Shown: positions 21,904 to 51,719 of the stretch, in pieces
Numbering within the stretch: the stretch's first letter is position 1
Layout: every line of letters begins with the position of its first letter
IMG/VR virus record: IMGVR_UViG_3300033489_000513
Length of the DNA stretch: 64,000 bases
Source of the DNA: a virus
Strand: one strand, 5' to 3'
Translations under genes and position numbers: made by a program
The notes under the pieces: model-generated
Database searches by the model: none
Seen by the model: only the letters and a program-made list of their open reading frames with translations
What the model was told of the DNA's origin: nothing

Positions 21904-21965
21904 AGTAGTCACGAAAAAGAATGGACCCAATTGTTGAGTTTGAAAGTACAAACGATCATCCTACC
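21904..21965 (-). ncRNA. k-turn-closed guide-like sRNA kt2
   Basis: GGUAG-GAU-GA-UCG [39 nt] CG-U-GA-CUACU; TATA 21989-21994. Confidence 0.7.
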
Positions 21966-21977
21966 AAGCATTGTTAT

Positions 21978-21994
21978 TTGTGAGAATATTTAAA
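21978..21994. promoter_or_regulatory. bidirectional TTGTGAGAATA-TTTAAA promoter
   Basis: TTTAAA is 26 nt from + ATG 22021 and 23 nt from the 5' end of kt2 on the minus strand. Confidence 0.55.
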
Positions 21995-22020
21995 TATTTG
22001 TTCCTAAAAGAGATTATCAT

Positions 22021-22287
22021 ATGCTAATTCTTATTTCGACAAAAGGGGAATTGGATGCATTTTACGCAAAGGAAGGCCATCAATGGGACAATAAAGAATG
22101 GGAAGATCGCGTGTGGGAAATAATCAAACGGGGATTACCTAATATTGATTCGTTAAAATGTGAAGACATTGCTTGTAAAAAAACCGTGTGGAAATTTCGT
22201 TATAATATGGCGGGGGAAATTCACTATATTTATTGTAAAAAACATTGGAATGAAATTATGCCACACGTTAAATTCTTTTCAGTATGA
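22021..22287 (+). CDS. hypothetical Zn-finger protein
   Basis: CEDIAC..YCKKH. Confidence 0.55.
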   Translation: MLILISTKGELDAFYAKEGHQWDNKEWEDRVWEIIKRGLPNIDSLKCEDIACKKTVWKFRYNMAGEIHYIYCKKHWNEIMPHVKFFSV

Positions 22288-22448
22288 AAATAAACGGAGA
22301 TTGAGAATTGAGGATTTTCGATGGAAAGTGAAATCAATCGTTCGAATTGCAATGAAGAATGTTATGGTTGTTGCCATTCAGCTTGCCATAAATGTGTTGA
22401 AGTAGAGTATTGCGGGAAAGCATACAATGTGGCGAATTGTAATAATAT

Positions 22449-22709
22449 TTGTCGAGTGCATATGTTATGGTAAATCCAGCAGACCAGCGAGTCCCCAAGC
22501 AGATAAAAGATGAGATCGAATTAATCGTGCAATGGTTGGACAACGACCGAATCGCGCCCTTATCTTCGGGCGAGCGGGCGCTATTTTACTTCATTCGGGA
22601 CGTGAATTTCGATGTCGAAGATTTTGGAGTAATTCTGAAAGAGCATTTTCCTGGGTTATGGTATCGCTTAGTTGGGGAGGCTCAGTTATACAAAAAACGG
22701 AGCAGGTAA
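22449..22709 (+). CDS. hypothetical protein
   Basis: ORF in + run; start may be the second Met. Confidence 0.45.
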   Translation: MSSAYVMVNPADQRVPKQIKDEIELIVQWLDNDRIAPLSSGERALFYFIRDVNFDVEDFGVILKEHFPGLWYRLVGEAQLYKKRSR

Positions 22710-22710
22710 T

Positions 22711-22941
22711 ATGGAAACGTTTCAAAAAGAATTGGAAGAACAGTTTTTTAATTGGTGTCAATTTCGTTTCAAGCATTCCACAGAATTGCCCGCTAAACCT
22801 CCTGTAATAAAAGAATTTATGCTAAGTTTACCTGATGAAACACTAAATAAACTCTGGAAAGTCTTTGCTCAAGAATGGAAAAAGAAATTCGTTAAAAGAT
22901 GGATAAAGGAGAAAGATTTGAATGAAAAAAGAAGCACCTAA
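22711..22941 (+). CDS. hypothetical protein
   Basis: likely start METFQK one base after previous stop. Confidence 0.5.
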   Translation: METFQKELEEQFFNWCQFRFKHSTELPAKPPVIKEFMLSLPDETLNKLWKVFAQEWKKKFVKRWIKEKDLNEKRST

Positions 22942-23266
22942 ACGGGGAACGCTTGTTCCCGTGGAAATTGAAGGTTATAGTCCCACCCGCCGTTTTGAAG
23001 TATGGTATTATGGACATAGATTAACACCCCAAGAAATCTTCCACCCGCCTGCGGATGGATCGTATGCGTGGGAGAAGAGTTTTAGAGATATAGATGATGG
23101 AAAATTAAGTGAATCTGATTTTGAGTATATCATCTATGAAGAATGGTGGCGCTGGGGAATTTGTACTTGTGGGGATGACCATAACCGTGATATTTATGAA
23201 GCAGAACCCCACGCCCGAGGAGCATTTCCCGTTACCCGTATTAATTTCAAACAAAAAGATTCTTAA
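22922..23266 (+). CDS. hypothetical protein
   Basis: 114 aa. Confidence 0.55.
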   Translation: MKKEAPKRGTLVPVEIEGYSPTRRFEVWYYGHRLTPQEIFHPPADGSYAWEKSFRDIDDGKLSESDFEYIIYEEWWRWGICTCGDDHNRDIYEAEPHARGAFPVTRINFKQKDS

Positions 23267-23270
23267 TTTT

Positions 23271-23504
23271 TTAGGATTTTTCCGAACAAGCGTTACATTT
23301 ATTTTCGGATACTTCGCGGGTAAAAGGAACGTATTTCAATAAATCCAACGCCGATAAAATGAGTTTTTGGGCTTCTCTCAATCTGTCTTCAATCATTTTT
23401 CGTTCCAATACGCAGTCAACTTGTTTCATTGCATTGCGGAGAATTTCATTTTTATCTTCTCCAACTATTTTTTCAGATTCTTTCATTATATCCCACTTCC
23501 ACAT
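23271..23504 (-). CDS. hypothetical protein
   Basis: 77 aa, convergent with + run. Confidence 0.45.
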   Translation of the reverse strand: MWKWDIMKESEKIVGEDKNEILRNAMKQVDCVLERKMIEDRLREAQKLILSALDLLKYVPFTREVSENKCNACSEKS

Positions 23505-24004
23505 TCTTCACGAGGGATGTTACATCCCATACATAGTGGTTCATTTCGAGAAAGGCAAACTAATTTAATAATGAAAGGAAGAGAACATCGTGTGGATTGC
23601 CAGGGTTTTTCATTTATATTAATTGAAATAACTTCTTTTCCATTTTTCCAGATAACTTCTGTTCTTGCGCCATAGCCCCGCCGAACAGAAATTTCATCAT
23701 TTCCAAGATACATGGATGTTTTCCACGGAAATAAGGTTAATCGTGAATCTTCCATCCCACTAGCTGCTTCGCAGAGGATTGAATCTGGGTCATAATCCAC
23801 GCCAAGCGAAGAAACCCTTCTTTTTTGGAGGATTGAACATAATTCTTTTTCAAATTGTTCCAGTTGTGTAGGTGTAGGCGATCCTGATTTGGCGAAGATC
23901 ATAGTATTAAGACTTGCCGCCGTTAAATCTTTCGCCCCATTATCAAAATGAGGATTCTTCAATTGTTCACCCCACCAGTGGGCGGCAAAAGCATATTGAT
24001 CCAT
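23486..24004 (-). CDS. conserved phage-type hypothetical protein
   Basis: AAHWW..DNG...LGVDYDPDSIL.EAA...FPWKTSM...VRRGYGA pattern. Confidence 0.65.
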   Translation of the reverse strand: MDQYAFAAHWWGEQLKNPHFDNGAKDLTAASLNTMIFAKSGSPTPTQLEQFEKELCSILQKRRVSSLGVDYDPDSILCEAASGMEDSRLTLFPWKTSMYLGNDEISVRRGYGARTEVIWKNGKEVISININEKPWQSTRCSLPFIIKLVCLSRNEPLCMGCNIPREECGSGI

Positions 24005-24331
24005 TTCGGTTCAATCCATCATTATTTCATCGATGTGATATATTTCTTTTTCCCAACCATATTTTCCCCACTGGATGCAGAGAATCATTCGATGGTTGTA
24101 AATTATGATGTAGTGAGTTCGGTAATCGTTTCCCGCGTTGTATTCCTTGATTTTCCCGAGAAAAATCTTCATAAGATACTCTTCAGACATTAATTATTCA
24201 TCCTTTCTTGTTGTCATTTCTCTTTTGTAGAAGCACTCTCTTTTGTATTTCCAAAAGCTGAAATTCATATTTTCACTTTCCTCTTTTGTGAGAAGTAGTA
24301 GTAAAAAGGGATATATAAGGTTTGTGAGAGA

Positions 24332-24388
24332 GACCATCACGTTAAAAATTACACAAAAACACTTGGACTATGAGCCGATCATTTGGTC
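24332..24388 (-). ncRNA. k-turn-closed guide-like sRNA kt3
   Basis: GACCA-AAU-GA-UCG [34 nt] CG-U-GA-UGGUC; promoter 24404-24419 overprinted on the upstream gene end. Confidence 0.7.
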
Positions 24389-24398
24389 GTGAATAGTT

Positions 24399-25100
24399 TT
24401 AGATGTGAGAACATTTAAAAGTTTGTTGTTTGATATATCCAAAACTTCCACGTAATAATTTTGGTTTCACGATTGTAAATTTCCCTAATTCATGTATTAA
24501 TCGCATAACTTTATCTAAAGAAGGTTCGGGGAGATTACAGTTTTTCGTATCAAATCCAACATATACTCGCATAGGATCTATATTCCGAACCATATCTACG
24601 AGTTTTTCTAAATCAAATTCCAGGATTGGTTCGATTGTCACAATATCAATATTCCCCGTTTGGATCGCGAGGGCATATCTCACAGAAGGAGAGGGAGCTT
24701 TAGAAATGAGATTATATCCTACATCCCGATTGGTTTCTAATGTAATTCCCCGCCAAACATTCTTGGGCCAATCATATTGAGAGAATGCAGATGGTTTTTT
24801 GGTTTGAAAAAAGAATTGTTTGTGATATAAATCGCTTACTCGTTTTAAGATTAATTTCATCCATTCTGGTTCTGCAAAGGAAAAATCCCCGCTGGCCCAC
24901 GCCCAAATAAATTGATCTCCCGAAGTAGTAGGGAGAGGTTGTCGCAATCGTTCAGGGTGGAAATGGGGCGTAAAATAATAACAACGTTCACAATTATGAA
25001 GCTGGCGTTTAGCCTGAGCTTGGAAGGATTTTACACAATATACGCATCCAAATAAACAACCTTGCCCAACGCTCCACCTTTTTACTGCGTCCGAATACAT
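24399..25100 (-). CDS. DUF5131/Gp37Gp68-like radical SAM protein
   Basis: GCLFGCVYC (CxxxCxxC), FAWASGDF, FQTKKP, VTIEPIL. Confidence 0.7.
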   Translation of the reverse strand: MYSDAVKRWSVGQGCLFGCVYCVKSFQAQAKRQLHNCERCYYFTPHFHPERLRQPLPTTSGDQFIWAWASGDFSFAEPEWMKLILKRVSDLYHKQFFFQTKKPSAFSQYDWPKNVWRGITLETNRDVGYNLISKAPSPSVRYALAIQTGNIDIVTIEPILEFDLEKLVDMVRNIDPMRVYVGFDTKNCNLPEPSLDKVMRLIHELGKFTIVKPKLLRGSFGYIKQQTFKCSHI

Positions 25101-25365
25101 ATTTTTAGGTGGAATCAGAGATATTCCCCACGTTTAACTTGTTTTTCCCACCGCGATTTATGCCAAAAATATAATTGAATATAATAATTAATAGAGCAGA
25201 ACATTTCTGAATCTGAATAGAAATTAGAAGCATAAGTCTCGCTGATGCTCCGATTGAGGAGGATATTGTCCAAATACCAATGCATTTTCGCGATGTGAGG
25301 ATATTTGCCGCCCATTTAAAACAGTCCTTTCAATTCATTTTTATCAACATCAAAAAGATCGACCA

Positions 25366-25623
25366 TTATTTATCCTCCTCTTCTTCAATCCATTCTTTAC
25401 TTTCCGCGCAGAAGAGCCCTTTCTCCAAGTCAATGATCTCGTACCGGGTCACGAGAGTTTTATGTTTCCCGTACAAGGTCTGCAGGATCAAAGGGGGTTG
25501 GAGCTTGCGCTCCTTATCCAGAAGGCGAATCTTGCGGCGGGTTTCATTCAACAAATCAACCAACTCATCGCGATCCCAAGACCACGATTCCAGAATTTTC
25601 ACGTTTTCCAATCCTTTAATCAT
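25366..25623 (-). CDS. hypothetical protein
   Basis: 85 aa in coupled run. Confidence 0.5.
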   Translation of the reverse strand: MIKGLENVKILESWSWDRDELVDLLNETRRKIRLLDKERKLQPPLILQTLYGKHKTLVTRYEIIDLEKGLFCAESKEWIEEEEDK

Positions 25624-25956
25624 TTAATCATCCCACGTATCTATATAAATAGCTTCTTCAAAATATTTGCAATGTTTCTTAGGACCTTTATTTCGGCTGA
25701 TATCTCCAAGATTGGATTTTCCCTTTACATTCCATTTAGGAGCCTTACAATGTTGATCTTCGTCCCCCCATCTGCAATGAGTACATAAACCCATATTGGA
25801 AAGGTGTTCCGATTCTGCTTCTTGAGAACGCCTTTCTTCTTCTTCCAGACAACCAGGACATTCATCATATACACCTTCCCAATGCCCGTGTTTAGAACAC
25901 GTTCCATCATAAGGATGCATTCGCTCCCATTCATCATTCGGATCTAGGAAACTCAT
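25624..25956 (-). CDS. Cys/His-rich hypothetical protein
   Basis: CSKHG..CPGC..CTHC..CKYF. Confidence 0.55.
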   Translation of the reverse strand: MSFLDPNDEWERMHPYDGTCSKHGHWEGVYDECPGCLEEEERRSQEAESEHLSNMGLCTHCRWGDEDQHCKAPKWNVKGKSNLGDISRNKGPKKHCKYFEEAIYIDTWDD

Positions 25957-26227
25957 AAGTTTTCCCTTCCACTATACCTTTTTTCGCTAAAAACCTTGCT
26001 CGTTCCATCTCTTCGGAAAGTTCTGTTTGTCGCTCCATTGAAATTGTATTACTAATATGCCATAATAAAGAATGAATTTTCTCAAAAAGGAATATATCTG
26101 CCTCTTCTTTTAAAGGAATCCCGGTGGAGTTATTATCTTCAATCTCATGGTAATATTGACAAATCTGCCACAAGATGGGAATTTCCTTCCCTTCGAATAC
26201 AACTTGAACATTTCCTTGAGTTTTCAT
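25934..26227 (-). CDS. hypothetical protein
   Basis: 97 aa, coupled. Confidence 0.5.
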   Translation of the reverse strand: MKTQGNVQVVFEGKEIPILWQICQYYHEIEDNNSTGIPLKEEADIFLFEKIHSLLWHISNTISMERQTELSEEMERARFLAKKGIVEGKTYEFPRSE

Positions 26228-26424
26228 TGTTTTTCACCTAATTCGATGCGCGAGATGTAATCCCCAAGTTCTTTTATTGTCATAGCATTTGGGATTTGCA
26301 CCACCCGCGATATTAAATCTTGTTGAACTTTTTTGCGGGAACACTCGATAATTTTGATGGTGTTACCATTTTCGATCCGATATCGGATGTAGGTTTTTCC
26401 TTCAAAGCATAAAGGGATATTCAT
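26224..26424 (-). CDS. hypothetical protein
   Basis: 66 aa, ATGA overlaps on both sides. Confidence 0.5.
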   Translation of the reverse strand: MNIPLCFEGKTYIRYRIENGNTIKIIECSRKKVQQDLISRVVQIPNAMTIKELGDYISRIELGEKQ

Positions 26425-26741
26425 TTTTCTTTCTCCGATTCTTCCTTTTCTTCTATTTCCATCAATGTGAAAATCTTTTCAACATCCGCCATCCCATTGA
26501 AGGAAATCCAATACGCGGGGGAAGTTGGACATAAGAATTGGTGTTGGAATGCATCGAAAGACGGGTAAAATCTGAGATCGAGAGTCCAGTCTTCCTCGTT
26601 CCAACTACGTTCAATGGTGATAATCCCCCCATTCGGCAATACATCCAAAATATACACCCAAAATGAACACATTTCGTCAAAACACATACCTGCGCGCGGG
26701 AAGAGAAAGGCGATCTTAGTATTAAAATCGGCATCCGTCAT
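26421..26741 (-). CDS. hypothetical protein
   Basis: 106 aa. Confidence 0.55.
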   Translation of the reverse strand: MTDADFNTKIAFLFPRAGMCFDEMCSFWVYILDVLPNGGIITIERSWNEEDWTLDLRFYPSFDAFQHQFLCPTSPAYWISFNGMADVEKIFTLMEIEEKEESEKEK

Positions 26742-26754
26742 TCAAATCTTTCCT

Positions 26755-26967
26755 TTATGAATCCTTTTTGGCAAATGGTTCCAAAAATCCCGTATTCTTG
26801 AGGATGGTGAGTAATTGCAGGCGATATTTTTCTTCTAAATTATTGAAAATAGATTTAACCACAGTAACTAGTTCACCATCATTAAGTTGTTTCCGAATTT
26901 TCTCATATATCTTTCCTGCTTTATTCCAATCTTCAAAAACCATAGTCTTATCCTTCTTCATAATCAA
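26755..26967 (-). CDS. hypothetical protein
   Basis: 70 aa. Confidence 0.5.
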   Translation of the reverse strand: MIMKKDKTMVFEDWNKAGKIYEKIRKQLNDGELVTVVKSIFNNLEEKYRLQLLTILKNTGFLEPFAKKDS

Positions 26968-27130
26968 TTTTATTTAGTTTAAAATATACGCTACAGATTT
27001 CTTCACAATCTAATTCTAAATTATTATGGAAGGGAGGACACAAATTACAGAAAACGCACATACAAGAATTGCAATTGCATTCCTCGGCAGTATCTTCGCA
27101 ATCCCCACATTGAAAATTAGAGGGGTGCAT
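26948..27130 (-). CDS. small Cys-rich protein
   Basis: nine Cys in 60 aa. Confidence 0.45.
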   Translation of the reverse strand: MHPSNFQCGDCEDTAEECNCNSCMCVFCNLCPPFHNNLELDCEEICSVYFKLNKIDYEEG

Positions 27131-27140
27131 TCCAACGTGT

Positions 27141-27326
27141 TCACAAGTCTTTTTGCCTATTGGATAAATCCCCCCATTTCCAATTCACTTCGTTAATAGG
27201 CCGGAGGGAAATAAGAAATACTTTATCTTCGCCTTCTTCTTTACACGGCCAAAGGTAGAATTTTTCTACACTTCCAAAGTATTTATCCAATTTTTTAAGG
27301 AGATCCTTTTCGAGTTGTTCGTTCAT
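27141..27326 (-). CDS. hypothetical protein
   Basis: 61 aa, starts 9 nt downstream of kt4. Confidence 0.5.
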   Translation of the reverse strand: MNEQLEKDLLKKLDKYFGSVEKFYLWPCKEEGEDKVFLISLRPINEVNWKWGDLSNRQKDL

Positions 27327-27334
27327 TATTATTA

Positions 27335-27394
27335 TAACCTCACGAATAGTTTTGTAGGCAGAAACTTAAGGAAATATGATACGATCATTGGTCA
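27335..27394 (-). ncRNA. k-turn-closed guide-like sRNA kt4
   Basis: UGACC-AAU-GA-UCG [37 nt] CG-U-GA-GGUUA; separated from its promoter by the TnpB element. Confidence 0.7.
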
Positions 27395-27399
27395 ACGTT

Positions 27400-35821: not shown

Positions 35822-37033
35822 TTAAGTTATTAAAGGATTGTATGGATACCTAAAAAATTGACGTATGTATTCTCCTATGCCTCGCATTCCCCGCTCGTTG
35901 AAGATATGGCTTAAGAGTTGTTCGTTTATGCCAACTCCCCGTAATCTCTCGGTTCGAATGCCAAGTATGAGAGAAAAAATGCCAAGTATGAGAGAAAAAT
36001 GCTCTAAACTATATATTTCGAAGTGAGGAGTTTCTTGGAGTTGGTTTTGAAAGGCGAGATCCGCAGTTTTTTCTTCCGATTGTTTTGGGGGGAAGAAAAT
36101 ATCAATTTTCGCCTTTGCGGATTCTGGGAGAGCTTGGAGAAAGGCATCATCAAATGTTTCTGTCATAAGATGGTAGGTACTTATGAGCAAATTAACCCGC
36201 GATTGCAACCATTCCACCGGCGCGGTCTCTAACAATTCCCCAATAACTCTTTGTTGGATGCTCTTCGCAGCGGCGGGACATAACTCTAGAAGACAATCTA
36301 AAATCTGTTTTTGCATAAGAGCATTGAATCCAAACGGTAAACCTAATGCAGAATCGGAATATCGGAGAGTGAACATTGCCTCCAAACCCATATCCGCGAT
36401 GCCTGCAACATATGATCGTAATGCCATAAAATGTTCTTCTGGTTCTAAATTCACTTGTTTGTTTTCCGAGGTCTGGCTGCCTTCCAAATTCAAATCCAGG
36501 GAATTACTAGTTTGGGCGATAGTTTCGGGTAATTGTTCGGGGGTAATCTGTGTGATAGCTATATGAACACACCCAACTTCCCGTTCTTTTGCGCTCAATC
36601 CATCTCGCATATAAAGAAGACAATCTTTTTCTAAACATTTGGAAGAAGGCGAATTGTAACCTCTGGAGCAAGGCGAGAACATGTTATCTCTTATGCAACT
36701 ATGAACACAGATATTGGGACGATGAAATACAATTCTAGAGTACATACTAGTACCCCAAGAACGTCTATACACCCGAGCCCCAATCATTATATTCGCTGCG
36801 AAGAGAGAAGGATCTTTGGTCAGTGGAAACCATACTTCCCATTTATAATCACCAAATAGTGCTACTGGTATTTTAGTAGCTATTGGATCCCATCCCCATA
36901 CTCGTTGGTAATATCGTCGTTTCTGCCGCGCGTGAAAGGCGGGAAGGATTCCTTCCTCTGCCTCCTTCCATTTTATCCACAATTCTTTACTGTTATCGAG
37001 TGCAGCTGTCTCAAAAAGTTTTATCACATTCAT
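35822..37033 (-). CDS. hypothetical protein (403 aa)
   Basis: long ORF, Cys cluster mid-protein. Confidence 0.65.
   Translation of the reverse strand: MNVIKLFETAALDNSKELWIKWKEAEEGILPAFHARQKRRYYQRVWGWDPIATKIPVALFGDYKWEVWFPLTKDPSLFAANIMIGARVYRRSWGTSMYSRIVFHRPNICVHSCIRDNMFSPCSRGYNSPSSKCLEKDCLLYMRDGLSAKEREVGCVHIAITQITPEQLPETIAQTSNSLDLNLEGSQTSENKQVNLEPEEHFMALRSYVAGIADMGLEAMFTLRYSDSALGLPFGFNALMQKQILDCLLELCPAAAKSIQQRVIGELLETAPVEWLQSRVNLLISTYHLMTETFDDAFLQALPESAKAKIDIFFPPKQSEEKTADLAFQNQLQETPHFEIYSLEHFSLILGIFSLILGIRTERLRGVGINEQLLSHIFNERGMRGIGEYIRQFFRYPYNPLIT
35957..35998. repeat. 21-bp perfect tandem duplication in coding frame
   Basis: AATGCCAAGTATGAGAGAAAA x2 giving FSLILGI-FSLILGI. Confidence 0.85.
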
Positions 37034-37272
37034 TGTTGTGCCTTCTTATTTTTGTGTTCTTCATTCAGTTTTGTGATGAATTGGGAGATCGTCATTAAAC
37101 ACCTATCCGAGTGAACTGTCTCGTTGGCAATTGTTGGAAAGAAACAATAATGTCTCCACGAACCATACCATTTTATCTTCCCGAGGATATCACCACTCAC
37201 TTTAGCTACAACCGCATAAACTCGCGTTTTTGCCTTTTGTTCCATCTCAATGAAATTCAACCATTCACTCAT
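37030..37272 (-). CDS. conserved phage-type hypothetical protein
   Basis: LGKIKWYGSWRHYCFFP...CL..ISQFI pattern. Confidence 0.6.
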   Translation of the reverse strand: MSEWLNFIEMEQKAKTRVYAVVAKVSGDILGKIKWYGSWRHYCFFPTIANETVHSDRCLMTISQFITKLNEEHKNKKAQQ

Positions 37273-37463
37273 AATTTGTCCTCACTAACTTTATTCCAAG
37301 ATATCCCACCATCTTGGAATTTCGGCAGGGTCACTTTCGAGATAAACTTGTGCATAGAGAATGTCGTGGGGATTATTCGAGTTATAATCAGAAATATCTA
37401 CCTCACGATCTTCGATTATTGTTACAACGTGATTCAAAATGCGGAGGAGGCGCAAATGAACCT

Positions 37464-37823
37464 TCATATAAAACGGAAACCCCCGAATTCACCTTCGTTT
37501 TTGGATTTTACTACTTGTATTTCGGGTGGCGAACAATCGTGAAGACTCCAACGCTCCTTAGCAAAGAAGAGAATTGCCTCCGCGTGAACTTTCACTCTAT
37601 TTCCTAATATATCCAAGATTGGATATTTCGGATTTTGCACTCGAACCCAGACATAACGATTGGGTACCACCGCTGAGGCATCTACTCGCCATTCTGGGAG
37701 CAGTATTTGAATAAGGTTGGCGATCGCTGCAGTTCGTTCTTCTTCTACTGTTTTCATATAGTCATATTCTTCTCCAATTTCTTGACCACATTTCCGACAT
37801 CTTGGCAACATTCGCCATCGCAT
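37464..37823 (-). CDS. hypothetical protein
   Basis: 119 aa, CRKC. Confidence 0.5.
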   Translation of the reverse strand: MRWRMLPRCRKCGQEIGEEYDYMKTVEEERTAAIANLIQILLPEWRVDASAVVPNRYVWVRVQNPKYPILDILGNRVKVHAEAILFFAKERWSLHDCSPPEIQVVKSKNEGEFGGFRFI

Positions 37824-37919
37824 TCATTATTATTATCATCATCATCCGTTTGTTCAATCTCTCCGTAAACATCGATGTAATCGGGAGGAATCCTCTCCCG
37901 CTTTTTCCCTTTTCTCTGC

Positions 37920-38108
37920 TCACTCATTGCGGCGGCCATCCACATTCCATTTAAACGCAAAACAAGTGCCTTTCTTAAGTTTTGGATTCACCCAAATGGG
38001 ATTATCTTGCTTGCCTTCTTTTTGGATCAGAAGAAATCCTTCCAACCCACAATGGGGTTTAAACGGGTTTCGGGAAGCACAATGCGTGCATTCTTGGAAA
38101 GAGGGCAT
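37920..38108 (-). CDS. small Cys-containing protein
   Basis: start MPSFQEC after GGAGG. Confidence 0.5.
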   Translation of the reverse strand: MPSFQECTHCASRNPFKPHCGLEGFLLIQKEGKQDNPIWVNPKLKKGTCFAFKWNVDGRRNE

Positions 38109-38258
38109 TTTACTCGCTCGCCCTCCAATTGTTGATGCCAGCCTCAACGACCGCGCGGATCGCATCATAGCAGTTCTGGCAGAAGTCACCCTTGCCAGGT
38201 AGCAATCGCGGGTCGACCAGGCGATGGCACATCTTGCATGATACGCTCGGGATGAGAC

Positions 38259-38423
38259 TCAAAACTGGTCGACCTCCTTGATACTCGTGACTTCCACATC
38301 GGCAGGTTCTATTTTCGAGCTCGCGAGCCCTTCGGCGCGGGCATATGCTTCCTCTTCGTCACACGCAGTCACGAGGAAACTCATATCCCGTTCGATGTGA
38401 ACCCATATGGTGTAGACGGGCAT
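38259..38423 (-). CDS. small hypothetical protein (paralog of 39089-39250)
   Basis: MPVYTIWVHI...VTACDEEEA after GGAGG. Confidence 0.55.
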   Translation of the reverse strand: MPVYTIWVHIERDMSFLVTACDEEEAYARAEGLASSKIEPADVEVTSIKEVDQF

Positions 38424-38558
38424 CTTACTCGCTCCCCTCCCGAAACTGTTGGGAGGCAAGACAATCTCTACAATACCAATGACCATTCAATATCGATTTA
38501 TATAATTTGGGTGGTGGTCTTTTTCCGCAAGTATAACAACGGTCTTTGGCATCAGGCA

Positions 38559-39020
38559 TTACTCACTCGCCTCCATCCGTTTGACAGAGGTAATCCATAC
38601 CCGTATGTCATCGTCTTTGATTGCATCTCGAATCATATCCATCGTTTCTGTTTTAAATAAGTAGTACAATAATTGTAAGTTGCCTTTAAGTCCCCAATCA
38701 TCTGCCTCGCCACATCGTTCCATTGTTTGGCAATAAATAATGCCCGCATCGCGTGCGAGTCGATTTATTGCCCGTGCCACGATCTCAAATATCTCAGTTG
38801 GTTGCTCTCCATCTTGCGCGTCAAATTCTGCGATTACCGAGCAATGATCTCTGACAACTTTCGCCTCTTTATCATTTTGGGGAATCAATTGGAGAATCGC
38901 GTTCTCTTGGGTAATACACACGGAAGCATTGAATGGATGCCCACGAAGCTCAAATCCGCTAAAATTAAGGGTTATAATGTTATTATTTTGTGTGAAAGTA
39001 CCAAGTTTGAAATCTCTCAT
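38559..39020 (-). CDS. hypothetical protein
   Basis: 153 aa. Confidence 0.55.
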   Translation of the reverse strand: MRDFKLGTFTQNNNIITLNFSGFELRGHPFNASVCITQENAILQLIPQNDKEAKVVRDHCSVIAEFDAQDGEQPTEIFEIVARAINRLARDAGIIYCQTMERCGEADDWGLKGNLQLLYYLFKTETMDMIRDAIKDDDIRVWITSVKRMEASE

Positions 39021-39088
39021 CTACTCATTCGCCCCCGCGGTTTGGATCGCTTGCACGTCCGCGAAGGACAATTGTTCGATGGTGGGCA

Positions 39089-39250
39089 TTACGGTTCCAC
39101 CTCAATTTTCTCTATATAACAAGTATTATCCGTGATTTCAGCAATCGCTCTCTTATATGCAATATCAACCGCGATATCTTCGTCATCCGCTGTCACATGG
39201 ACGATCGTATTCCATTTTCTGATACAAACCGTGATAGCATAGTTGGGCAT
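39089..39250 (-). CDS. small hypothetical protein (53 aa, manual)
   Basis: MPNYAITVCI...VTADDEDIA, similar to 38259-38423. Confidence 0.5.
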   Translation of the reverse strand: MPNYAITVCIRKWNTIVHVTADDEDIAVDIAYKRAIAEITDNTCYIEKIEVEP

Positions 39251-39633
39251 TGATTATGCCTCCCATTTTCGCTTAAAATCGATTAGAACCTGACTCGCCT
39301 CTTCCATATCTGTATAGAGAGTGCCGTCTAAATCCTGATCAATTTCATATTCAAGGGCGGTTTTCAAGACTTCATATTGCTTTTTCGTGAGAGTGATTGT
39401 TTTTTCTATTTGTTCTGTTTTTTCCATTTTAATTCCTCTCTATAATTTTTGGGTCAAGTCTCAATTCCATCCGAACCTTATTACATTCAGATCCATTCCA
39501 GAAGAAACAACTAAATTGCACGCAAGGGAATTCTTCATCTCTGGTATTATTAACAGACCAATAGCGAAAAGGACAAATCATAATGAAATATTGGAGACGA
39601 AAAATATAAAGGTTTGTGAGAATAGAAAAATCC

Positions 39634-39840
39634 TTAATTCTTCTTCTTCAATTTAATGATCGCAATTAAACAAGCAAATCCAAGAATAAACCAGAAAGCC
39701 GTCCAATAATCAATGATGAGGGCGCTTGACAGCATAATGGTTATTATTCCATTCCACCAAAGTTGGAATAATAATGCAATGCTGAGGAAGCCTACTATCA
39801 ATAATACAAAGAGTAGGGGGGTTAAATCTTCTTTATCCAT
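39634..39840 (-). CDS. small membrane protein
   Basis: 2-3 hydrophobic segments, basic C-terminus. Confidence 0.55.
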   Translation of the reverse strand: MDKEDLTPLLFVLLIVGFLSIALLFQLWWNGIITIMLSSALIIDYWTAFWFILGFACLIAIIKLKKKN

Positions 39841-40018
39841 TGTTCATTTTCACCTTTGAACTATTCTCCTTCAAATTCAATATTTCCGCTCTTAAATTAT
39901 CTTTATGATGAAAATCGAGATGAGTGCCTATCTGACCTTCAGGTATCTCTTTATTGCATAAACAACAGAGATAGAATATCCGTTCTCCATCGAGGAAGGC
40001 TTCAAAGACTTTGATCAT
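39833..40018 (-). CDS. small C2H2-like Zn-finger protein
   Basis: CCLC...HLDFHH. Confidence 0.5.
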   Translation of the reverse strand: MIKVFEAFLDGERIFYLCCLCNKEIPEGQIGTHLDFHHKDNLRAEILNLKENSSKVKMNNG

Positions 40019-40039
40019 ATGATTTACACTCGTTCAATT

Positions 40040-40444
40040 TTAATAATAAATACCTTCATTAAATGAGATATCCGCAAGCTGGGTTTCGTTTAAATCTATA
40101 CAATAACTTGCTTTCCATTTTGCGAAATTTAAGGGTTGCAATTGTTCTTTATGGTAAAGCGGTAATGCCTGCGTGATCTCATCAAAATCATATTGATAGG
40201 AACAATCAAAAAATTCGCAGATGCCGTGCATAAAATAATCGTGAACAATGCGTCCCTCACAGAGAGGACAAAGCATTTCATCATAAAGATCTTTGGGGCG
40301 TGCTCCCTCCGATTGGTTGTAAAATCCAATCTCGATTCCAGCCGCATAGTTCTCGCTCCAACTTCCTAACTTCCTAAAGAAGGAAATTCGTGCTCGATCC
40401 CACCACGTCAGCGGGTGAACGCGGGACTTCCGTTTCTTTGCCAT
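40040..40444 (-). CDS. Zn-ribbon hypothetical protein
   Basis: CPLC..C..FDC; downstream of kt9. Confidence 0.55.
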   Translation of the reverse strand: MAKKRKSRVHPLTWWDRARISFFRKLGSWSENYAAGIEIGFYNQSEGARPKDLYDEMLCPLCEGRIVHDYFMHGICEFFDCSYQYDFDEITQALPLYHKEQLQPLNFAKWKASYCIDLNETQLADISFNEGIYY

Positions 40445-40504
40445 CGATATTTCACATCTTGCTCTGTTAGTTGTTTCGCGATTTCAATTATTCTGACTTT
40501 TGGA

Positions 40505-40556
40505 GAGCAATCACGAAAGAAGGAACTTCTTGTATTATGGCTCGATCATTTTGCTC
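40505..40556 (-). ncRNA. k-turn-closed guide-like sRNA kt9
   Basis: GAGCAA-AAU-GA-UCG [27 nt] CG-U-GA-UUGCUC; promoter 40569-40585. Confidence 0.75.
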
Positions 40557-40600
40557 ATATGATGATTGTTGTGAGAAGTTTTATACTTATCGGAAAAAAA

Positions 40601-40688
40601 TTAATTCTCTCACGAAGACCCACCCCATTGCTTCCCGTCCGTTTTAAGGGAGTCCCTTTTGCCCTACAGAAGAAGACCCAGGGTAATT
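40601..40688. repeat. non-coding ~88-nt element, copy A
   Basis: blocks CTCTCACGAA, CATTGCT, TTAARGGAGTCCC, GGGTAATT shared with 45790-45878. Confidence 0.6.
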
Positions 40689-40716
40689 TCAAGATGTAAA
40701 AAGGAAAAAAAGAAAA

Positions 40717-41280
40717 TTAGGAGTACTTACTGTGTATTATGACGCAAATTATTATTGCGGCAATAGCACACCCCAATAAGATCCAGAACCATCCAGTAGT
40801 AGACGGATCGAAGGTATTCCAATACTGGATACTGTTTCCGACGCTGGGCGAGGATGCCAAGTGATCTGCCATCTCGTCACTGAATTTCTGCATATTCGTC
40901 ACTACAAGCTGATAGGTAGTATTTGCTTGGGGTATATCTTGGAAGACTTTGCAAGTATTGATGGCCTGCTGGAGGTTTGCCTTGATCATATCAAAGTCAG
41001 TATCTATAGTAGGTACGTATATATTCATCCAAACTGCTTGCCCGTTAAAAGGTTCCAGCAAGTCCAGAGCATTTTGAAAATAACCTGCCATCTGTGTCAG
41101 ATTTGTAGATGCACGTATTTCCCACATATAAGATTGTGCTTGTACGATATGTACCGTACTGGAATAGTATCTATTTACTGGAATTATGATCATTCCCACT
41201 GCACATAATATCGCTATTAACCCGCTGGCAATCACAGCTTTCTTCAAACTACTTTCTCTAATTTCGTAAGACATATTCAT
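40717..41280 (-). CDS. membrane protein with N- and C-terminal TM helices
   Basis: likely start MNMSYE; hydrophobic segments at both ends. Confidence 0.6.
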   Translation of the reverse strand: MNMSYEIRESSLKKAVIASGLIAILCAVGMIIIPVNRYYSSTVHIVQAQSYMWEIRASTNLTQMAGYFQNALDLLEPFNGQAVWMNIYVPTIDTDFDMIKANLQQAINTCKVFQDIPQANTTYQLVVTNMQKFSDEMADHLASSPSVGNSIQYWNTFDPSTTGWFWILLGCAIAAIIICVIIHSKYS

Positions 41281-41284
41281 ACCT

Positions 41285-41644
41285 CTAATAAAAATCTGGG
41301 TCCGCTCGCCCACGCTTGGAAACCAAGGCAGGTTTCGAGGAAAACGAATGATTTTGAATGAAACATTTTTCACATAAAACTCGTTCATTAAATGAAGAGG
41401 ACATATGATTGGATGCCCACATAAAAAGGGATATTCCCTCTTTCCCACAAAAATCACAAGGACGATGTCTAATGGTGATATAATCCCGAAAGGAATCAAC
41501 ACAGATTGAATAATCCCCATCACTCCAGAGTTTAATATCAATATGTCGGTCCTCAGGAAACCATCCCACTAGATCCGCCATTCGATTCAACAAATCAATT
41601 TCTTGTTGTAATTGGGAAGTTTTTAAATTATATTGAAGAATCAT
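41285..41644 (-). CDS. Zn-finger hypothetical protein
   Basis: CDFC..CEKC; start uncertain. Confidence 0.45.
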   Translation of the reverse strand: MILQYNLKTSQLQQEIDLLNRMADLVGWFPEDRHIDIKLWSDGDYSICVDSFRDYITIRHRPCDFCGKEGISLFMWASNHMSSSFNERVLCEKCFIQNHSFSSKPALVSKRGRADPDFY

Positions 41645-41672
41645 GTGGAAACCTCATATTCTATGATCTTTT

Positions 41673-41948
41673 TCATTTTTGGGTATTATAAAAACGTTGG
41701 TAAGCTTTGTGCATTAATTGGTGGTGTTCCTTGCGACATTTCGGACATCGTTTACAATAATAACCCACAAAATACTGCTTACATTCAATACATAACCAAG
41801 TTCTCTTTCGTCCCAATCCAGTCCGATATTTATGCCCGTTTGACCTGCGGCATCCATCACAGATCGGACTTGCCTTTGCGATAAACGGAGCCTTGCAGCG
41901 CGGACAAATAGTATGGTGATCCATATTTAACTTCCCAAAAGAGAGCAA
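41673..41948 (-). CDS. Cys-rich basic hypothetical protein
   Basis: several CxxC; downstream of kt10; start uncertain. Confidence 0.45.
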   Translation of the reverse strand: MLSFGKLNMDHHTICPRCKAPFIAKASPICDGCRRSNGHKYRTGLGRKRTWLCIECKQYFVGYYCKRCPKCRKEHHQLMHKAYQRFYNTQK

Positions 41949-41999
41949 TCACTAATTATGTCAAATAAGTATAATAATATGAAACCGATCATCTTGCTC
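41943..41999 (-). ncRNA. k-turn-closed guide-like sRNA kt10
   Basis: GAGCAA-GAU-GA-UCG [32 nt] AG-U-GA-UUGCUC; promoter 42013-42029. Confidence 0.72.
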
Positions 42000-42232
42000 C
42001 AGATAAAGATTGTTGTGAGAAGTTTTATACTTATCGGATCGGATTACTTTTCTTATGGACCCCGCTCTTTCTTCAAAGTATCCACGAGGAGAGTAGTCGT
42101 CTTCAATATAGACTCAATGTGATTGACCATTGTCCGCAACTCGGCTGCGAGTCCTCCAAGTTCTCTGAGAATCTTTTCTGTATATTCAAGATTATTGATT
42201 ATAACCATTTTAAATTCATCCTATTTGTCATA

Positions 42233-42430
42233 TTAAATTGTTACTTCCCGATGTGGAGGATTTTTCGTGAAAACTCTTAAATCACATTCTGTAACCGCTT
42301 TTTGCCATTCAATGCCATTTATTGAATCTGCACATAACACCATATGAAAGCGTTGTTTAAACTGTAAAGCAAATTTACAATCCAAGCAAAGATTGAATCC
42401 ACGTTGTTTCTTATTTAACTGTTTATTCAT
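42233..42430 (-). CDS. small Cys-containing protein
   Basis: CLDC..C..C. Confidence 0.5.
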   Translation of the reverse strand: MNKQLNKKQRGFNLCLDCKFALQFKQRFHMVLCADSINGIEWQKAVTECDLRVFTKNPPHREVTI

Positions 42431-42665
42431 TCTCCAATGCCTCTGCTACGATTTGATCGAACATTTCTAATTCTTCCCGTTGTTGTTTCAACGCCTTTTT
42501 CTTGATGTTGAAGTAAATCTGCGGTACAAACGCCCCATCGCCTTGATTTCTTCGCCACAATGCCGATGCGAGACACATAATTTCTCCGTATCCGTATTTT
42601 TCCCCCAATTCTTTGACAGATAATACTTGTTGTTTGATAAATTCCTTTGGAGATGTGTACGGCAT
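42423..42665 (-). CDS. conserved phage-type hypothetical protein
   Basis: GEKYGYGEIMCLASALWR...GAFVP. Confidence 0.6.
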   Translation of the reverse strand: MPYTSPKEFIKQQVLSVKELGEKYGYGEIMCLASALWRRNQGDGAFVPQIYFNIKKKALKQQREELEMFDQIVAEALENE

Positions 42666-42762
42666 AAAAAAAAGTTTACTCCTTCAATTTTTTAGGGGTT
42701 TCATTTTTATATTTCCTTGAAATTAACAAAGGAATAACATATTAAAAATGGTTTGTGAGAAC

Positions 42763-43278
42763 TTATATATGTTTAAGTTCATTTAAATGTTCTTCAAACA
42801 AAGCATCATTCACTGCTTTGGGTTTTTCCTTATCCTCTTTGCCATCAAATATTTGTCGGGTTTCGTCTTTATTTTCCCTTGGAATTAAATGAACGTCCAA
42901 AGACCTGAGCAAGACACTTTTCCGTTCCGCCAAAGCAATATTCTTTTCGGCGATTCCGAGTTTCCGGTTCCATTCCACTTCCCACCATTTTCCTCGTTCT
43001 CGTTCCAAAATAAAATGGTTTTTCATAATTTCTCGTTCTTTCTCAGAATATGGCGTATGAGTGGGATTATTTTTCCAGAACTCTTCCCATTCAGCGCGCC
43101 TTCTTTCGTCAAAAGTATGTCCAACAAGAACGTGTTTTGCCCAATCACGATCTTCGCGATATAGTTTTAACCGTTCCTCAACATCTTCAAGGATCTTCAA
43201 TAACCATTGGCGTATATCCATTTCTAGTCTTATAATTTCCGTTACTTCGTCAAATTTTTGTTCAACCATATTAATCAC
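42763..43278 (-). CDS. coiled-coil hypothetical protein
   Basis: 171 aa, class C promoter near 43317. Confidence 0.6.
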   Translation of the reverse strand: MINMVEQKFDEVTEIIRLEMDIRQWLLKILEDVEERLKLYREDRDWAKHVLVGHTFDERRRAEWEEFWKNNPTHTPYSEKEREIMKNHFILERERGKWWEVEWNRKLGIAEKNIALAERKSVLLRSLDVHLIPRENKDETRQIFDGKEDKEKPKAVNDALFEEHLNELKHI

Positions 43279-43347
43279 AAAACTTCTTAAGTAGAGGTAA
43301 TATAAGAATGGGAAAATATAAAGGTTTGTGAGAGGAACGTAAAAAAA

Positions 43348-43683
43348 TTAAATGGGGGTTACATTATTTAATATTTCGAGCAGAGATTTCCCAATGCCTG
43401 TTTGAATTTTGGTATAGCTCATAGTGTCTCCGCAATCCTTCGCGATCTCGGAAAGTAGGGGGAAAAGACGGGATTCAATCAAATCTAATCCAATAATAGA
43501 ATAATGTTGAATCATTCCCGCAAGACCCTCTTCTGTTTGGAGATAAGCGAGTATTTTTAATCCTATTTTCCGTCTCTTTTCTTCAGATTCAGGATCTTGG
43601 GCACACATTGTTTTAAAAAAGGACCAATTTTGGAGGATATTATATAACTCGTTCATATGCATACACTTCAATTGTTTGAACAA
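43348..43683 (-). CDS. hypothetical protein
   Basis: true start probably an internal Met just downstream of kt11. Confidence 0.5.
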   Translation of the reverse strand: MFKQLKCMHMNELYNILQNWSFFKTMCAQDPESEEKRRKIGLKILAYLQTEEGLAGMIQHYSIIGLDLIESRLFPLLSEIAKDCGDTMSYTKIQTGIGKSLLEILNNVTPI

Positions 43684-43745
43684 TCACGAATCTATGGAAT
43701 TGAGTAAAATCAATGAAAATATGTTAACACGATCATCTTGTTCAA
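43676..43745 (-). ncRNA. k-turn-closed guide-like sRNA kt11
   Basis: UUGAACAA-GAU-GA-UCG [41 nt] CG-U-GA-UUGUUCAA (compensatory G-C to A-U versus GAGCAA/UUGCUC); promoter 43757-43773. Confidence 0.78.
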
Positions 43746-43774
43746 GAGGGAAGTTATTGTGAGAACATTTAAAG

Positions 43775-44047
43775 TTATGTATCTTTTTTTATTTTCTTTT
43801 TGAATATCTTGAAAAAAAGAACTAACACCCAGAAGATCATCACGGGTAAGAGAAGGAGGACCGTGACCCAATCTGCGACCAACGAAAAATATGCCAAGAA
43901 TAAGATCTGACCAATCAGAATCCCGATCGCTCCTATCATACTGAAACTATCAATACTATCCCTATTTTTCACTATCGCAACAATGGAAGGTATGGTCCCA
44001 ATAAAGAGCGATAATGTTGCGATATTAGACAAGATAGAGATATCCAT
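43775..44047 (-). CDS. PQ-loop/SemiSWEET-like 3-TM protein
   Basis: TIPSIVAIVKNRDSIDSFS followed by two more TM helices. Confidence 0.5.
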   Translation of the reverse strand: MDISILSNIATLSLFIGTIPSIVAIVKNRDSIDSFSMIGAIGILIGQILFLAYFSLVADWVTVLLLLPVMIFWVLVLFFKIFKKKIKKDT

Positions 44048-44107
44048 GAAGGAATATTAGCGGGAGAAAATATAAAGATTGTGAGAAAAAGATAAAAAAC
44101 CGTCAAA

Positions 44108-44308
44108 CTATCCCTTATCAGGATATAATTTCTCGTCTTCCTTCAACCATATGAGGAAGGGCTCTTTCTCTGCGGGGATATGAGCGTGAGCCGCCCGTGT
44201 GAGTAATTGGATAATTTCGGGAGAGGAGTTCTTGAAAACTTCCAATGCGCCCGTGTCACTCAAACCATCCTCTATGGCGCTTTTAACCAACATATATAAT
44301 GTCATCAT
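44108..44308 (-). CDS. hypothetical protein
   Basis: 66 aa downstream of kt12. Confidence 0.5.
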   Translation of the reverse strand: MMTLYMLVKSAIEDGLSDTGALEVFKNSSPEIIQLLTRAAHAHIPAEKEPFLIWLKEDEKLYPDKG

Positions 44309-44348
44309 TTAGATCAAGGGTATCTTTTGGAGATGCCGATACTTTGTA

Positions 44349-44422
44349 TGAGCAATCACGAAAAAGGTGTCTTTCATAATTCATAAACTTGAATAAACAT
44401 ATGAACCCGATCATCTTGCTCA
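44349..44422 (-). ncRNA. k-turn-closed guide-like sRNA kt12
   Basis: UGAGCAA-GAU-GA-UCG [47 nt] CG-U-GA-UUGCUCA; promoter 44436-44450. Confidence 0.75.
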
Positions 44423-44468
44423 ATAGGAAGAAGGATGTGAGAATATAAATAATTTGTGGAAAAAGGAT

Positions 44469-44535
44469 GAGCAATCACGAAAGAAATTCAAGCAATATCA
44501 TAACATTATCAAAAGTGAACCCGATCATTTTGCTC
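44469..44535 (-). ncRNA. k-turn-closed guide-like sRNA kt13
   Basis: GAGCAA-AAU-GA-UCG [42 nt] CG-U-GA-UUGCUC then UUUUU; promoter 44549-44565; no ORF before the next promoter. Confidence 0.78.
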
Positions 44536-44588
44536 GATAGAAAGAAGGTTGTGAGAACGTTTAAACCTATGGAAAAAAAGAAAAAAAG

Positions 44589-49790: not shown

Positions 49791-49809
49791 TTTTAAGGTC
49801 TTCTCACAA
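49791..49809 (-). promoter_or_regulatory. class A cassette promoter TTGTGAGAAGACC-TTAAAA
   Basis: motif repeated about 10 times in 49.8-59.3 kb. Confidence 0.65.
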
Positions 49810-50000
49810 ATAAATATTAAAAAAAAGGTTCATAAAAGGCTTCCAATGGCGATATGGAGAGCCTTTCTGGCAATATATAATTGATATTCAACGACATTAT
49901 CTTTCGTTAGTTCCGCAAGTTTACAAATTTCCTGATAGACGTTTTCTAACTGTTGTTTTTCAGATGTCATACTTTTTTTCCCTCTTTTTTTAAGAAGATA

Positions 50001-50261
50001 TTATTTTTCTTTTACCGAAAGGATTTCGATGGGAATAATCCATCCCACCCTTTTTAGCTGTTCTACTTCTTTGACGGCGCGCTCATAGGTTTCATGCCAT
50101 GCGAAGACACATTCTTCATAAATTCTGCCTTCATCATCAATTGGGCCTGTTAATCTTGGCGCGGTAGAGTGATATAAAGCAAATTTATATTCATATTTGA
50201 CAGAATTTCTTTTATAGGTTTTTCCGTTTTTTGTGACAATAAAGGTCCTTTTTTCTGGCAT
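50001..50261 (-). CDS. hypothetical protein
   Basis: 86 aa behind cassette promoter 50323-50342. Confidence 0.6.
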   Translation of the reverse strand: MPEKRTFIVTKNGKTYKRNSVKYEYKFALYHSTAPRLTGPIDDEGRIYEECVFAWHETYERAVKEVEQLKRVGWIIPIEILSVKEK

Positions 50262-50322
50262 TTTATTTTTCCCTTTCTTTGTATGCTTTTTTGTAGTGGT
50301 AAGAATATTAAGCCATCTTTCC

Positions 50323-50342
50323 CTTATAAGGTCTTCTCACAA
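50323..50342 (-). promoter_or_regulatory. class A cassette promoter TTGTGAGAAGACC-TTATAAG
   Basis: BRE-position GAGAA plus TATA. Confidence 0.65.
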
Positions 50343-51659: not shown

Positions 51660-51719
51660 GCTACCCACATATGTTCCTCATTTTGGTGAGCCCTGAGCCG
51701 AAGTAATCAAGAAGAGAAT

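Follow-up and report, generated by a model that had tools for sequence, protein, structure and literature searches.

A family of promoter-linked, box C/D-type kink-turn RNA units in a probable virus of a Lokiarchaeon

The box C/D-type ribonucleoprotein (RNP) architecture occurs in both archaea and eukaryotes, TIGR and IS110 guide RNAs are related to it, and the genes of archaeal box C/D small RNAs (sRNAs) have been reported in flexible genomic contexts. Archaeal l7ae and other mRNAs carry kink-turn (k-turn) stem-loops with a GAU-type bulge and tandem G·A pairs in their 5′ leaders (PMC5539422, PMC6298567), and in the known L7Ae leader device the Shine-Dalgarno sequence lies in or beside the k-turn helix and is occluded on folding (PMC6298567). 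TIGR arrays, found beside a Nop-domain Tas gene, are regular tandem arrays with dual repeats of 8-12 nt and spacers of 9 nt that are processed from a single transcript, and their authors link box C/D snoRNPs to TIGR RNAs by evolution (PMC12045711). Full-text literature searches turned up no k-turn small RNAs from viruses of Asgard or other archaea, and as far as these searches show, Asgard archaeal viruses have no described regulatory RNA and no characterised promoters. Here we analyse 64,000 nucleotides (nt) of the IMG/VR virus record IMGVR_UViG_3300033489_000513 (hereafter the window), which belongs to a 145-kb soil-metagenome contig, and describe a dispersed family of small k-turn RNA units, most of them preceded by a promoter of their own, in what is probably a virus of a Lokiarchaeon.

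The whole window was scanned with a structure-aware pattern (5′ stem, 1 nt, AUGAUCG, 15-75 nt, CGUGA, complementary 3′ stem), which recovered 13 intact units, all on the minus strand, against 0.42 expected from Markov shuffles of the window. Their AUGAUCG boxes have the first A at positions 8534, 21959, 24382, 27388, 28819, 28984, 33667, 35301, 40549, 41992, 43736, 44414, and 44528, and units are referred to by this position where no coordinates are given. When the boxes were relaxed by one mismatch, no additional unit appeared in the window, while one degenerate copy (kt5b, 28870-28915), spotted by eye between two intact units and missed by the covariance model, reads AAGAUCG...CAUGA within a stem AACCC/GGGUU. 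The intact units are 51-74 nt long and share one layout, i.e., a terminal stem of 4-8 bp, AUGAUCG, a unique loop of 26-47 nt, CGUGA, and the second stem arm; AUGAUCG is present in 13 of 13 units and CGUGA in 12, the remaining one (41942-42000) having the box D variant AGUGA. The terminal helix occurs in seven different sequences that are all compensatory, with G-U pairs among the stem changes (one such variant, UUGAACAA/UUGUUCAA, closes the unit at 43676-43745), and in a MAFFT alignment all six terminal-stem pairs vary on both sides and hence covary. Stem positions were paired in 94.2% of the cells compared with 71.8% in column shuffles (0 of 500 shuffles as high), and sliding the partner columns lowered this value to 31-56%. 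A covariance model derived from the alignment scored the 13 units at 39.5-63.5 bits, the next match in the window reaching 15.8 bits. Minimum-energy folds (ViennaRNA) contained the closing helix in 11 of the 13 units, and most loops were without stable predicted structure (z-scores -2.3 to +1.0). Next to the helix there is a 3-nt bulge (R-A-U), followed by G·A, A·G, U·U, C-G, and G-C, and by this sequence geometry AUGAUCG and CGUGA form a box C/D-type k-turn with tandem sheared G·A pairs in all 13 units. A coding reading was rejected on direct sequence inspection, as the plus-strand ATGs fall in differing frames and the minus-strand open reading frames (ORFs) that begin at the box C AUG are short and inconsistent.

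Like archaeal box C/D sRNAs, all 13 units combine small size with a terminal helix and a k-turn that has a 3-nt bulge, tandem G·A/A·G pairs and a U·U pair, and they likewise occur as stand-alone genes, in 5′ untranslated regions (UTRs) and at the 3′ end of a gene. They differ from them in having AUGAUCG instead of RUGAUGA and GUGA instead of CUGA, in a fourth pair that is flipped from G-C to C-G and followed by an extra G-C, in showing no rRNA complementarity of ≥ 10 nt (23S and 16S searched), in their dedicated promoters, and in being encoded by a virus-like element and not by a cell. No canonical box C/D candidates and no tRNA genes were found in the window, and Rfam gave nothing at the gathering threshold across its whole length. 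With TIGR-Tas systems of phages and archaeal viruses the family has in common that its short RNAs are virus-borne, end in box C/D-like sequences and contain variable segments; the k-turn units, in contrast, are dispersed over 36 kb, have individual promoters and long single loops, and are accompanied by no Nop-domain gene detectable with Pfam among 85 window ORFs. We regard the proposed link between box C/D RNAs and TIGR guide arrays as the nearest published idea, although its architecture is different (PMC12045711).

Relatives of the family were sought at several levels. The exact pattern (commonest stem plus boxes) had no matches in the IMG/VR, JGI metagenome, and GTDB genome collections, a loose motif scan of viral contigs gave single chance matches only, and a scan for motif plus boxes in metagenome contigs gave 75 single matches, none of which scored with the covariance model. 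The same model, run over 151 genomes of the host's order, produced chance-level matches of ≤ 27.7 bits that lie in coding DNA and are without a promoter, and in the host relative introduced below AUGAUCG...CGUGA strings exist, none of them with a closing stem, so that no copies of the family were found there. Neighbouring genes were equally unproductive as an entry point: known phages had no nucleotide match to the window, a 936-aa protein had no homologue but itself, a 403-aa protein and the RNA ligase had no relatives in viral contigs, the Thg1-like gene led to two viral contigs neither of which has k-turn units or the motif, and homologues of the Ro-like protein were ≤ 51% identical, with two examined contexts that are cellular, and offered no route to relatives of the units.

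In archaeal promoters, the TATA box is centred about 26-27 nt upstream of the start, with a purine-rich B recognition element (BRE) upstream of it and a pyrimidine|purine initiator. At 11 of the units, a TATA-like hexamer lies 0-1 nt upstream of the 9-mer [T/C/A]TCTCACA[A/T], whose end is 17-20 nt from AUGAUCG and 10-14 nt from the base of the stem (exactly 12 nt in seven of the 11); the hexamer itself starts 26-30 nt from the stem base, where a pyrimidine|purine step is found in nine cases. The spacer between motif and stem varies in sequence between subfamilies while its length is kept, which argues for selection on the spacing beyond mere recent copying. In several copies CCGAAA or CCGATAA stands directly upstream of the TATA box; it looks like a BRE and would orient transcription toward the unit. 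At 29843, where a promoter has the same geometry, a 260-aa ORF begins with its ATG 14 nt past the motif, the distance expected for a leaderless mRNA that starts 12-14 nt after it, and by the same measure the predicted start of a unit coincides with the first nucleotide of the helix. We therefore place the predicted transcription start at the purine at, or no more than 2 nt from, the stem base.

These distances agree with the 16-19 nt that a preliminary description had counted from the end of an octamer to AUGAUCG in 11 copies, equal to our 17-20 nt from the 9-mer. Its broader claim that each k-turn RNA has its own promoter holds for these 11 units and, in a sense, for a twelfth that was split from its promoter by a TnpB element; it fails for unit 8534 and for kt5b. 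Likewise, the 13 copies that it had placed within 21904-44565 add up to the right total for that range, but one of them is the degenerate kt5b, which leaves 12 intact units there, and the further intact unit at 8534 lies outside. What had to be corrected is the notion that TTCTCACAA is special to the k-turn RNAs: the TCTCACAA motif occurs 90 times at ≤ 1 mismatch across the window, where 25.6 occurrences are expected, and is the general promoter motif of the element. It is found in three arrangements, namely TATA then motif (the k-turn units and few others), motif then ACCTTTATA with an ATG about 25 nt further on, and a long repeated cassette at 49.8-59.3 kb. In this last region (49791-59313), about ten longer conserved cassettes (AGAATCAAGTCTCGCCTATAAGGTC plus TTCTCACAA, plus strand) stand ahead of small minus-strand genes. 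The credible minus-strand promoters of the TATA-then-motif kind number about 17 in the window; 12 serve k-turn units (the TnpB-split one counted), and another stands before a strongly structured RNA of a different kind that precedes the Ro-like gene. As the motif is not enriched in the host-relative genome (36 matches vs. 36 in the control), it is a signal of the element itself. Archaeal factors bound upstream of TATA usually activate, while those bound between TATA and the start usually repress, and by analogy a single factor acting on the TCTCACAA motif could switch the two promoter classes in opposite directions; the TrmB-, MarR- and HTH-type genes of the window are candidates for encoding it.

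Eight of the 13 units lie 8-60 nt ahead of a same-strand ORF by our stem boundaries (9-61 nt in the preliminary description, which had likewise placed these copies before ORFs), and the eight ORFs are unrelated to one another. In the order of the minus strand, the first of these is kt12 (44349-44422; 47-nt loop), with the ORF 44108-44308 starting 40 nt downstream and a promoter (44435-44449; TTTATA plus TTCTCACAT) placed directly after the terminator-like U-run of the preceding unit. It is followed by the unit at 43676-43745 (promoter 43757-43772, ORF 13 nt downstream), the AGUGA-bearing unit at 41942-42000 (promoter 42013-42027, ORF 17 nt downstream), and the units at 40505-40556 (27-nt loop, promoter 40569-40583, ORF 60 nt downstream), 35258-35308 (26-nt loop, promoter 35321-35335, ORF 42 nt downstream), and 33609-33675 (40-nt loop, promoter 33688-33702 with BRE-like CCGAAA upstream, ORF 36 nt downstream). 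The remaining two are kt4 (27335-27394; stem UGACC/GGUUA), whose ORF begins 8 nt downstream, and kt1 (21904-21965; stem GGUAG/CUACU), with its promoter at 21978-21992 and an ORF 18 nt downstream that is preceded by GAGG. In kt1 the TATA box is perfectly palindromic (ATTTAAAT), and about 30 nt beyond this box a plus-strand ORF cluster (22021-23266) begins, so the region (21978-22023) may be a divergent promoter with one common TATA box.

Behind four intact units (44528, 28984, 28819, 24382) there is no ORF, and another promoter or unit comes next. The stand-alone kt13 (44469-44535; stem GAGCAA/UUGCUC, 42-nt loop, 59.7 bits) has its promoter at 44549-44564 (TATA, TTTAAAC, plus TTCTCACAA), with the motif ending 13 nt from the stem base, and is followed by UUUUU starting four nt past its stem. 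In a second cluster, kt6 (28926-28992; stem AUGACUC/GAGUCAU, promoter 29003-29018) is succeeded by the degenerate kt5b, which is without a promoter of its own, and then by kt5 (28773-28824; stem GCCC/GGGC, promoter 28837-28851), after which come UUUU and the next promoter. Both the stacking of kt13 and kt12 (44349-44535) and of kt6, kt5b, and kt5 (28773-28992) with no intervening ORF, and the UUUUU after kt13, had been noticed before and are borne out here. The fourth stand-alone unit (24332-24388; stem GACCA/UGGUC, promoter 24403-24418) is followed directly by a promoter of the motif-then-TATA geometry. The thirteenth intact unit (8486-8541; stem GAAGCG/CGCUUC) has no promoter and sits behind an ORF and not ahead of one, just 3′ of the ORF 8548-8865, with U-runs after it; an HNH endonuclease ORF (7817-8500, plus strand) terminates inside this unit. 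Runs of U4-U6 thus follow two of the four stand-alone intact units as well as unit 8534.

The way in which promoter, scaffold and loop are combined supports, at the level of sequence, a reading of the units as modular cassettes. The flanks of units 33667 and 41992 agree at 89% over 45 nt upstream and at 83% over 12 nt downstream, the variable spacer included, yet the units enclose unrelated loops of 40 and 32 nt; over all pairs, the loop-to-loop identity (0.544) is that of shuffled loops (0.529 ± 0.063). For kt4 there is no nearby promoter, and an orphan TATA-plus-motif promoter (TTTAAATCA plus TTCTCACAA, 28737-28752) stands before a TnpB gene. In-silico deletion of the 1,329-bp TnpB (OrfB_IS605) element between them (27400-28728, minus strand, TGAT at both junctions) joins this promoter to kt4 with a motif-to-box spacing of 19 nt, within the normal range. 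The tnpB gene, carried by a TnpB-only element of the IS605 type inserted at TGAT, would now be driven by the captured k-turn promoter; its nearest relatives are 41-43% identical and come from Heimdallarchaeota and Ktedonobacteria genomes. No RNA sequencing run was listed as containing this DNA, and two DNA runs revealed neither variation at the units nor a TnpB site without the insertion. In public (Logan) assemblies of the source sample there are breaks at about 40593 and 42009, and the near-identical promoter-k-turn cassettes at these places are, since the assemblies end there, apparently long and similar enough to confuse assembly. The earlier proposal of promoter-plus-scaffold cassettes with swapped spacers is accordingly strengthened in its first half by the kept spacing with a varied spacer, the unrelated genes, the TnpB-split unit, and the near-identical flanks around unrelated loops; no mechanism of swapping was found, and that spacers are exchanged at all is something we infer from these patterns.

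A module that is reused ahead of many unrelated small genes recalls the promoter cassettes before small early genes of large viruses, and here, too, the mosaic pattern suggests recombination at the module, which differs in including a structured RNA scaffold besides the promoter. Early anti-defence genes of archaeal viruses have reportedly been discovered through their regulatory sequences. The eight units downstream of a promoter and ahead of ORFs also resemble L7Ae leader k-turns in placing a GAU-type bulge with G·A/A·G pairs in a predicted mRNA 5′ leader, and by analogy they would presumably be folded only on L7Ae binding. The known leaders, by contrast, are short hairpins that bury the ribosome-binding site, whereas the units enclose a loop of 26-47 nt, their helix arms do not resemble Shine-Dalgarno sequences, translation would start 8-60 nt past the unit, GAGG, where seen, is beyond the helix, and the linked genes are unrelated ORFans, with some units lacking any gene. 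The suggestion that the copies ahead of ORFs act as L7Ae-responsive 5′ UTRs therefore keeps its structural half, a k-turn in the predicted 5′ UTR of eight ORFs, and loses ground on the position of the ribosome-binding site, which is not in or beside the helix, on the distance of the start codons, and on the four intact units with no ORF behind them.

The window encodes PCNA, a T4-type RNA ligase, a Thg1-like enzyme, a Ro-like (DUF2828) protein, ERCC4, HNH endonucleases, TnpB, an ArdC-like protein and many ORFans, and most ORFs surrounding the units are without a Pfam family; atlas look-ups of two ORFans, of 403 and 323 aa, yielded nothing informative. Since no capsid gene was recognised in the window, we speak of a virus-like element. 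Its PCNA (12332-13204, minus strand) is 84-86% identical to the cellular PCNA of Promethearchaeota (Lokiarchaeal) genomes of the CR_4 type and 42-44% identical to other Loki PCNAs, and the level of 84-86% makes a close relative of the CR_4 lineage the most likely host. In CR_4-type genomes, the PCNA gene is neighboured by primase, GINS and ribosomal protein genes, and these genomes also encode L7Ae. The element is thus probably a virus of a Lokiarchaeon, with a PCNA gene that was probably captured from a CR_4-related host, as the sequence identity suggests, recently. The l7ae leader of the host relative (L129:4250-4312, with the gene itself at 4312-4671) contains a small hairpin, CC-GAU-GA-UUAA-UGA-UGG, that resembles the published autoregulatory k-turn of L7Ae. 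Ahead of the Ro-like (DUF2828) gene, the window carries a structured RNA of about 200 nt (31362-31566, minus strand) with a TATA-then-motif promoter (31578-31595); it has three stem units with a CAGCAA box in each and folds better than any of 200 shuffles (z = -4.08), and is a possible Y-RNA-like partner of the Ro-like protein.

The loops, although mutually unrelated, are not free of common features. CAU starts at loop position 3-7 in nine of the 13 (1.44 expected; 0 of 20,000 shuffles reach nine), two further loops have CAC at position 3-7, and the local consensus is kUUCAUAU (CAU examples at 44407-44403, 41985-41981, and 40545-40543). The last five loop nucleotides, just 5′ of CGUGA, are U-rich (6-11 of 13 per position, often CCUUUUU), and G is rare throughout. 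The CAU enrichment, the U-rich end and the scarcity of G indicate that the loops are under some constraint. Judged by its sequence, the CAU may be an anti-start codon or, equally possibly, part of an extended scaffold, and the U-rich end might be a site for an Sm-like protein or a weak internal terminator.

Building on the RNA structure, promoter geometry, modularity and host lineage described above, we favour, with confidence slightly better than even, an explanation in which the k-turn units are promoter-driven small RNPs bound by L7Ae, some of them capping mRNAs, with loops that serve as recognition segments. Each unit would be transcribed from an archaeal-type promoter consisting of a BRE-like purine stretch, TATA, and the TCTCACAA motif of the element, starting at the purine at or ≤ 2 nt from the base of the 4-8 bp helix. 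This helix would close the box C/D-type k-turn and hold the G-poor, mostly unstructured loop of 26-47 nt between its strands, and host L7Ae would bind and fold the kink, by analogy with all archaeal k-turns of this type. Stand-alone units would give rise to RNPs of 51-74 nt, while units before ORFs would yield mRNAs whose 5′ end carries this RNP as a cap; trimming of such mRNAs might release the small RNA as well. For the variable loop we propose a role as a single-stranded antisense or guide segment with targets outside the window.

Several results weigh against this explanation. No loop targets above shuffled controls were found in the window or, by BLAST, in the host-relative genome, and the longest Watson-Crick runs between loops and the 23S rRNA of the host relative or three 16S rRNAs of the order (6-9 nt) equal those of shuffled loops; with the 64-kb window and the host relative covered, and the other 81 kb of the contig and the true host outside the search, these tests are weak. 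No relatives of the family turned up in any collection searched. Domains of L7Ae, Nop/Nop5, and fibrillarin are absent from the 85 window ORFs by Pfam, although divergent Tas proteins might be missed in this way. The boxes are not those of canonical C/D RNAs, the units share no internal C′/D′ motif and no fixed 12-nt guide, and six of the 13 loops are without UGA. Among the five intact units with no ORF behind them, only three are followed by a run of at least four U. Finally, in the reverse orientation the TATA-plus-motif element is arranged like the other promoter classes of the window, and that of kt1 could also serve a plus-strand ORF.

A bolder version, which we hold to be unlikely, makes the units individually promoted guide RNAs of a C/D-derived, CRISPR-independent system, in which the L7Ae-clamped k-turn would present an antisense loop, often starting with an anti-start-codon CAU, and the RNP would be steered to the translation starts of host or viral mRNAs, either by itself or together with Nop5-fibrillarin of the host or a viral Nop-type effector that escaped recognition. 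About as doubtful, to our mind, is that the units act mainly in cis, as L7Ae-responsive 5′ leaders in which folding of the kink represses or tunes translation of the downstream ORF as in l7ae autoregulation. The position of eight units 8-60 nt before a same-strand ORF fits such a role, the bulge (GAU or AAU) and tandem G·A pairs match the published leader k-turns (PMC6298567, PMC5539422), and the host relative's l7ae leader has such a hairpin. The known device, however, keeps the Shine-Dalgarno sequence in or beside the helix (PMC6298567), while here translation would start outside the unit, at a distance of 36-60 nt in four cases; no ORF follows kt5b or four of the intact units; and loops are not complementary to the downstream start codon in cis, with a mean pairing energy of -8.05 kcal/mol for cognate compared with -8.46 kcal/mol for non-cognate pairs. 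A role without information in the loops would account for their mutual dissimilarity, very different lengths, and lack of detectable targets: as protein-binding caps or decoys, the units could titrate host L7Ae away from ribosome or sRNP assembly, or an L7Ae-bound k-turn at the 5′ end could shield transcripts from exonucleases. This possibility is suited by the large number of copies that use a single conserved type of promoter, by a k-turn placed right at the predicted 5′ terminus, and by unit 8534 at the 3′ end of a gene, yet the loops are constrained (CAU at position 3-7 in nine of 13, U-rich last five positions, few G), and the near-identical flanks around unrelated loops at 33667 and 41992 argue for loop replacement or diversifying selection and not for slow drift, so we give it no more than a small share of the probability.

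Two other readings seem to us very improbable. If the units were ordinary box C/D guides, through which host fibrillarin-Nop5 methylates rRNA or tRNA, they would show the C/D-type k-turn geometry at their termini and a size of 51-74 nt, as the units do, but AUGAUCG and GUGA replace RUGAUGA and CUGA, the internal C′/D′ pair and, in six loops, UGA are missing, the rRNA runs (23S of the host relative, 16S of the order) do not exceed the 6-9 nt of shuffled loops, and Rfam has no match. The repeats could also work as DNA, either by serving as sites for recombination or insertion or by forming a miniature mobile element, with the TATA-plus-motif firing away from them on the plus strand. Read in that direction it has the motif-then-TATA geometry of other window promoters, the palindromic TATA of kt1 has a plus-strand ORF starting some 30 nt past it, and public assemblies break at the repeated cassettes. 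For a DNA-level function, it is difficult to see why all 13 units should lie on the strand of the surrounding genes, why stem changes should be compensatory in the RNA sense with G-U pairs included, and why the motif-to-stem spacing should be conserved; moreover, the BRE-like purines are on the side that directs transcription toward the unit, and 10 of the 11 promoters have no plus-strand ORF to serve.

In one element, the family presents a clean, repeated natural design in which an archaeal promoter with a fixed predicted start is joined to a kink that would bind protein and to a loop that seems exchangeable. Should the loops be guides, a virus would here be using the C/D-type RNP architecture in a new way, and if they are steered to translation starts as in the bolder version above, the element could shut off selected genes of its Asgard host in a programmable manner. 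Even with loops that carry no information, the family would suggest that a virus takes advantage of an abundant ribosomal protein of its host for capping or decoying RNA. Whichever reading holds, the promoter geometry is a practical key for annotating the transcription units of the element.

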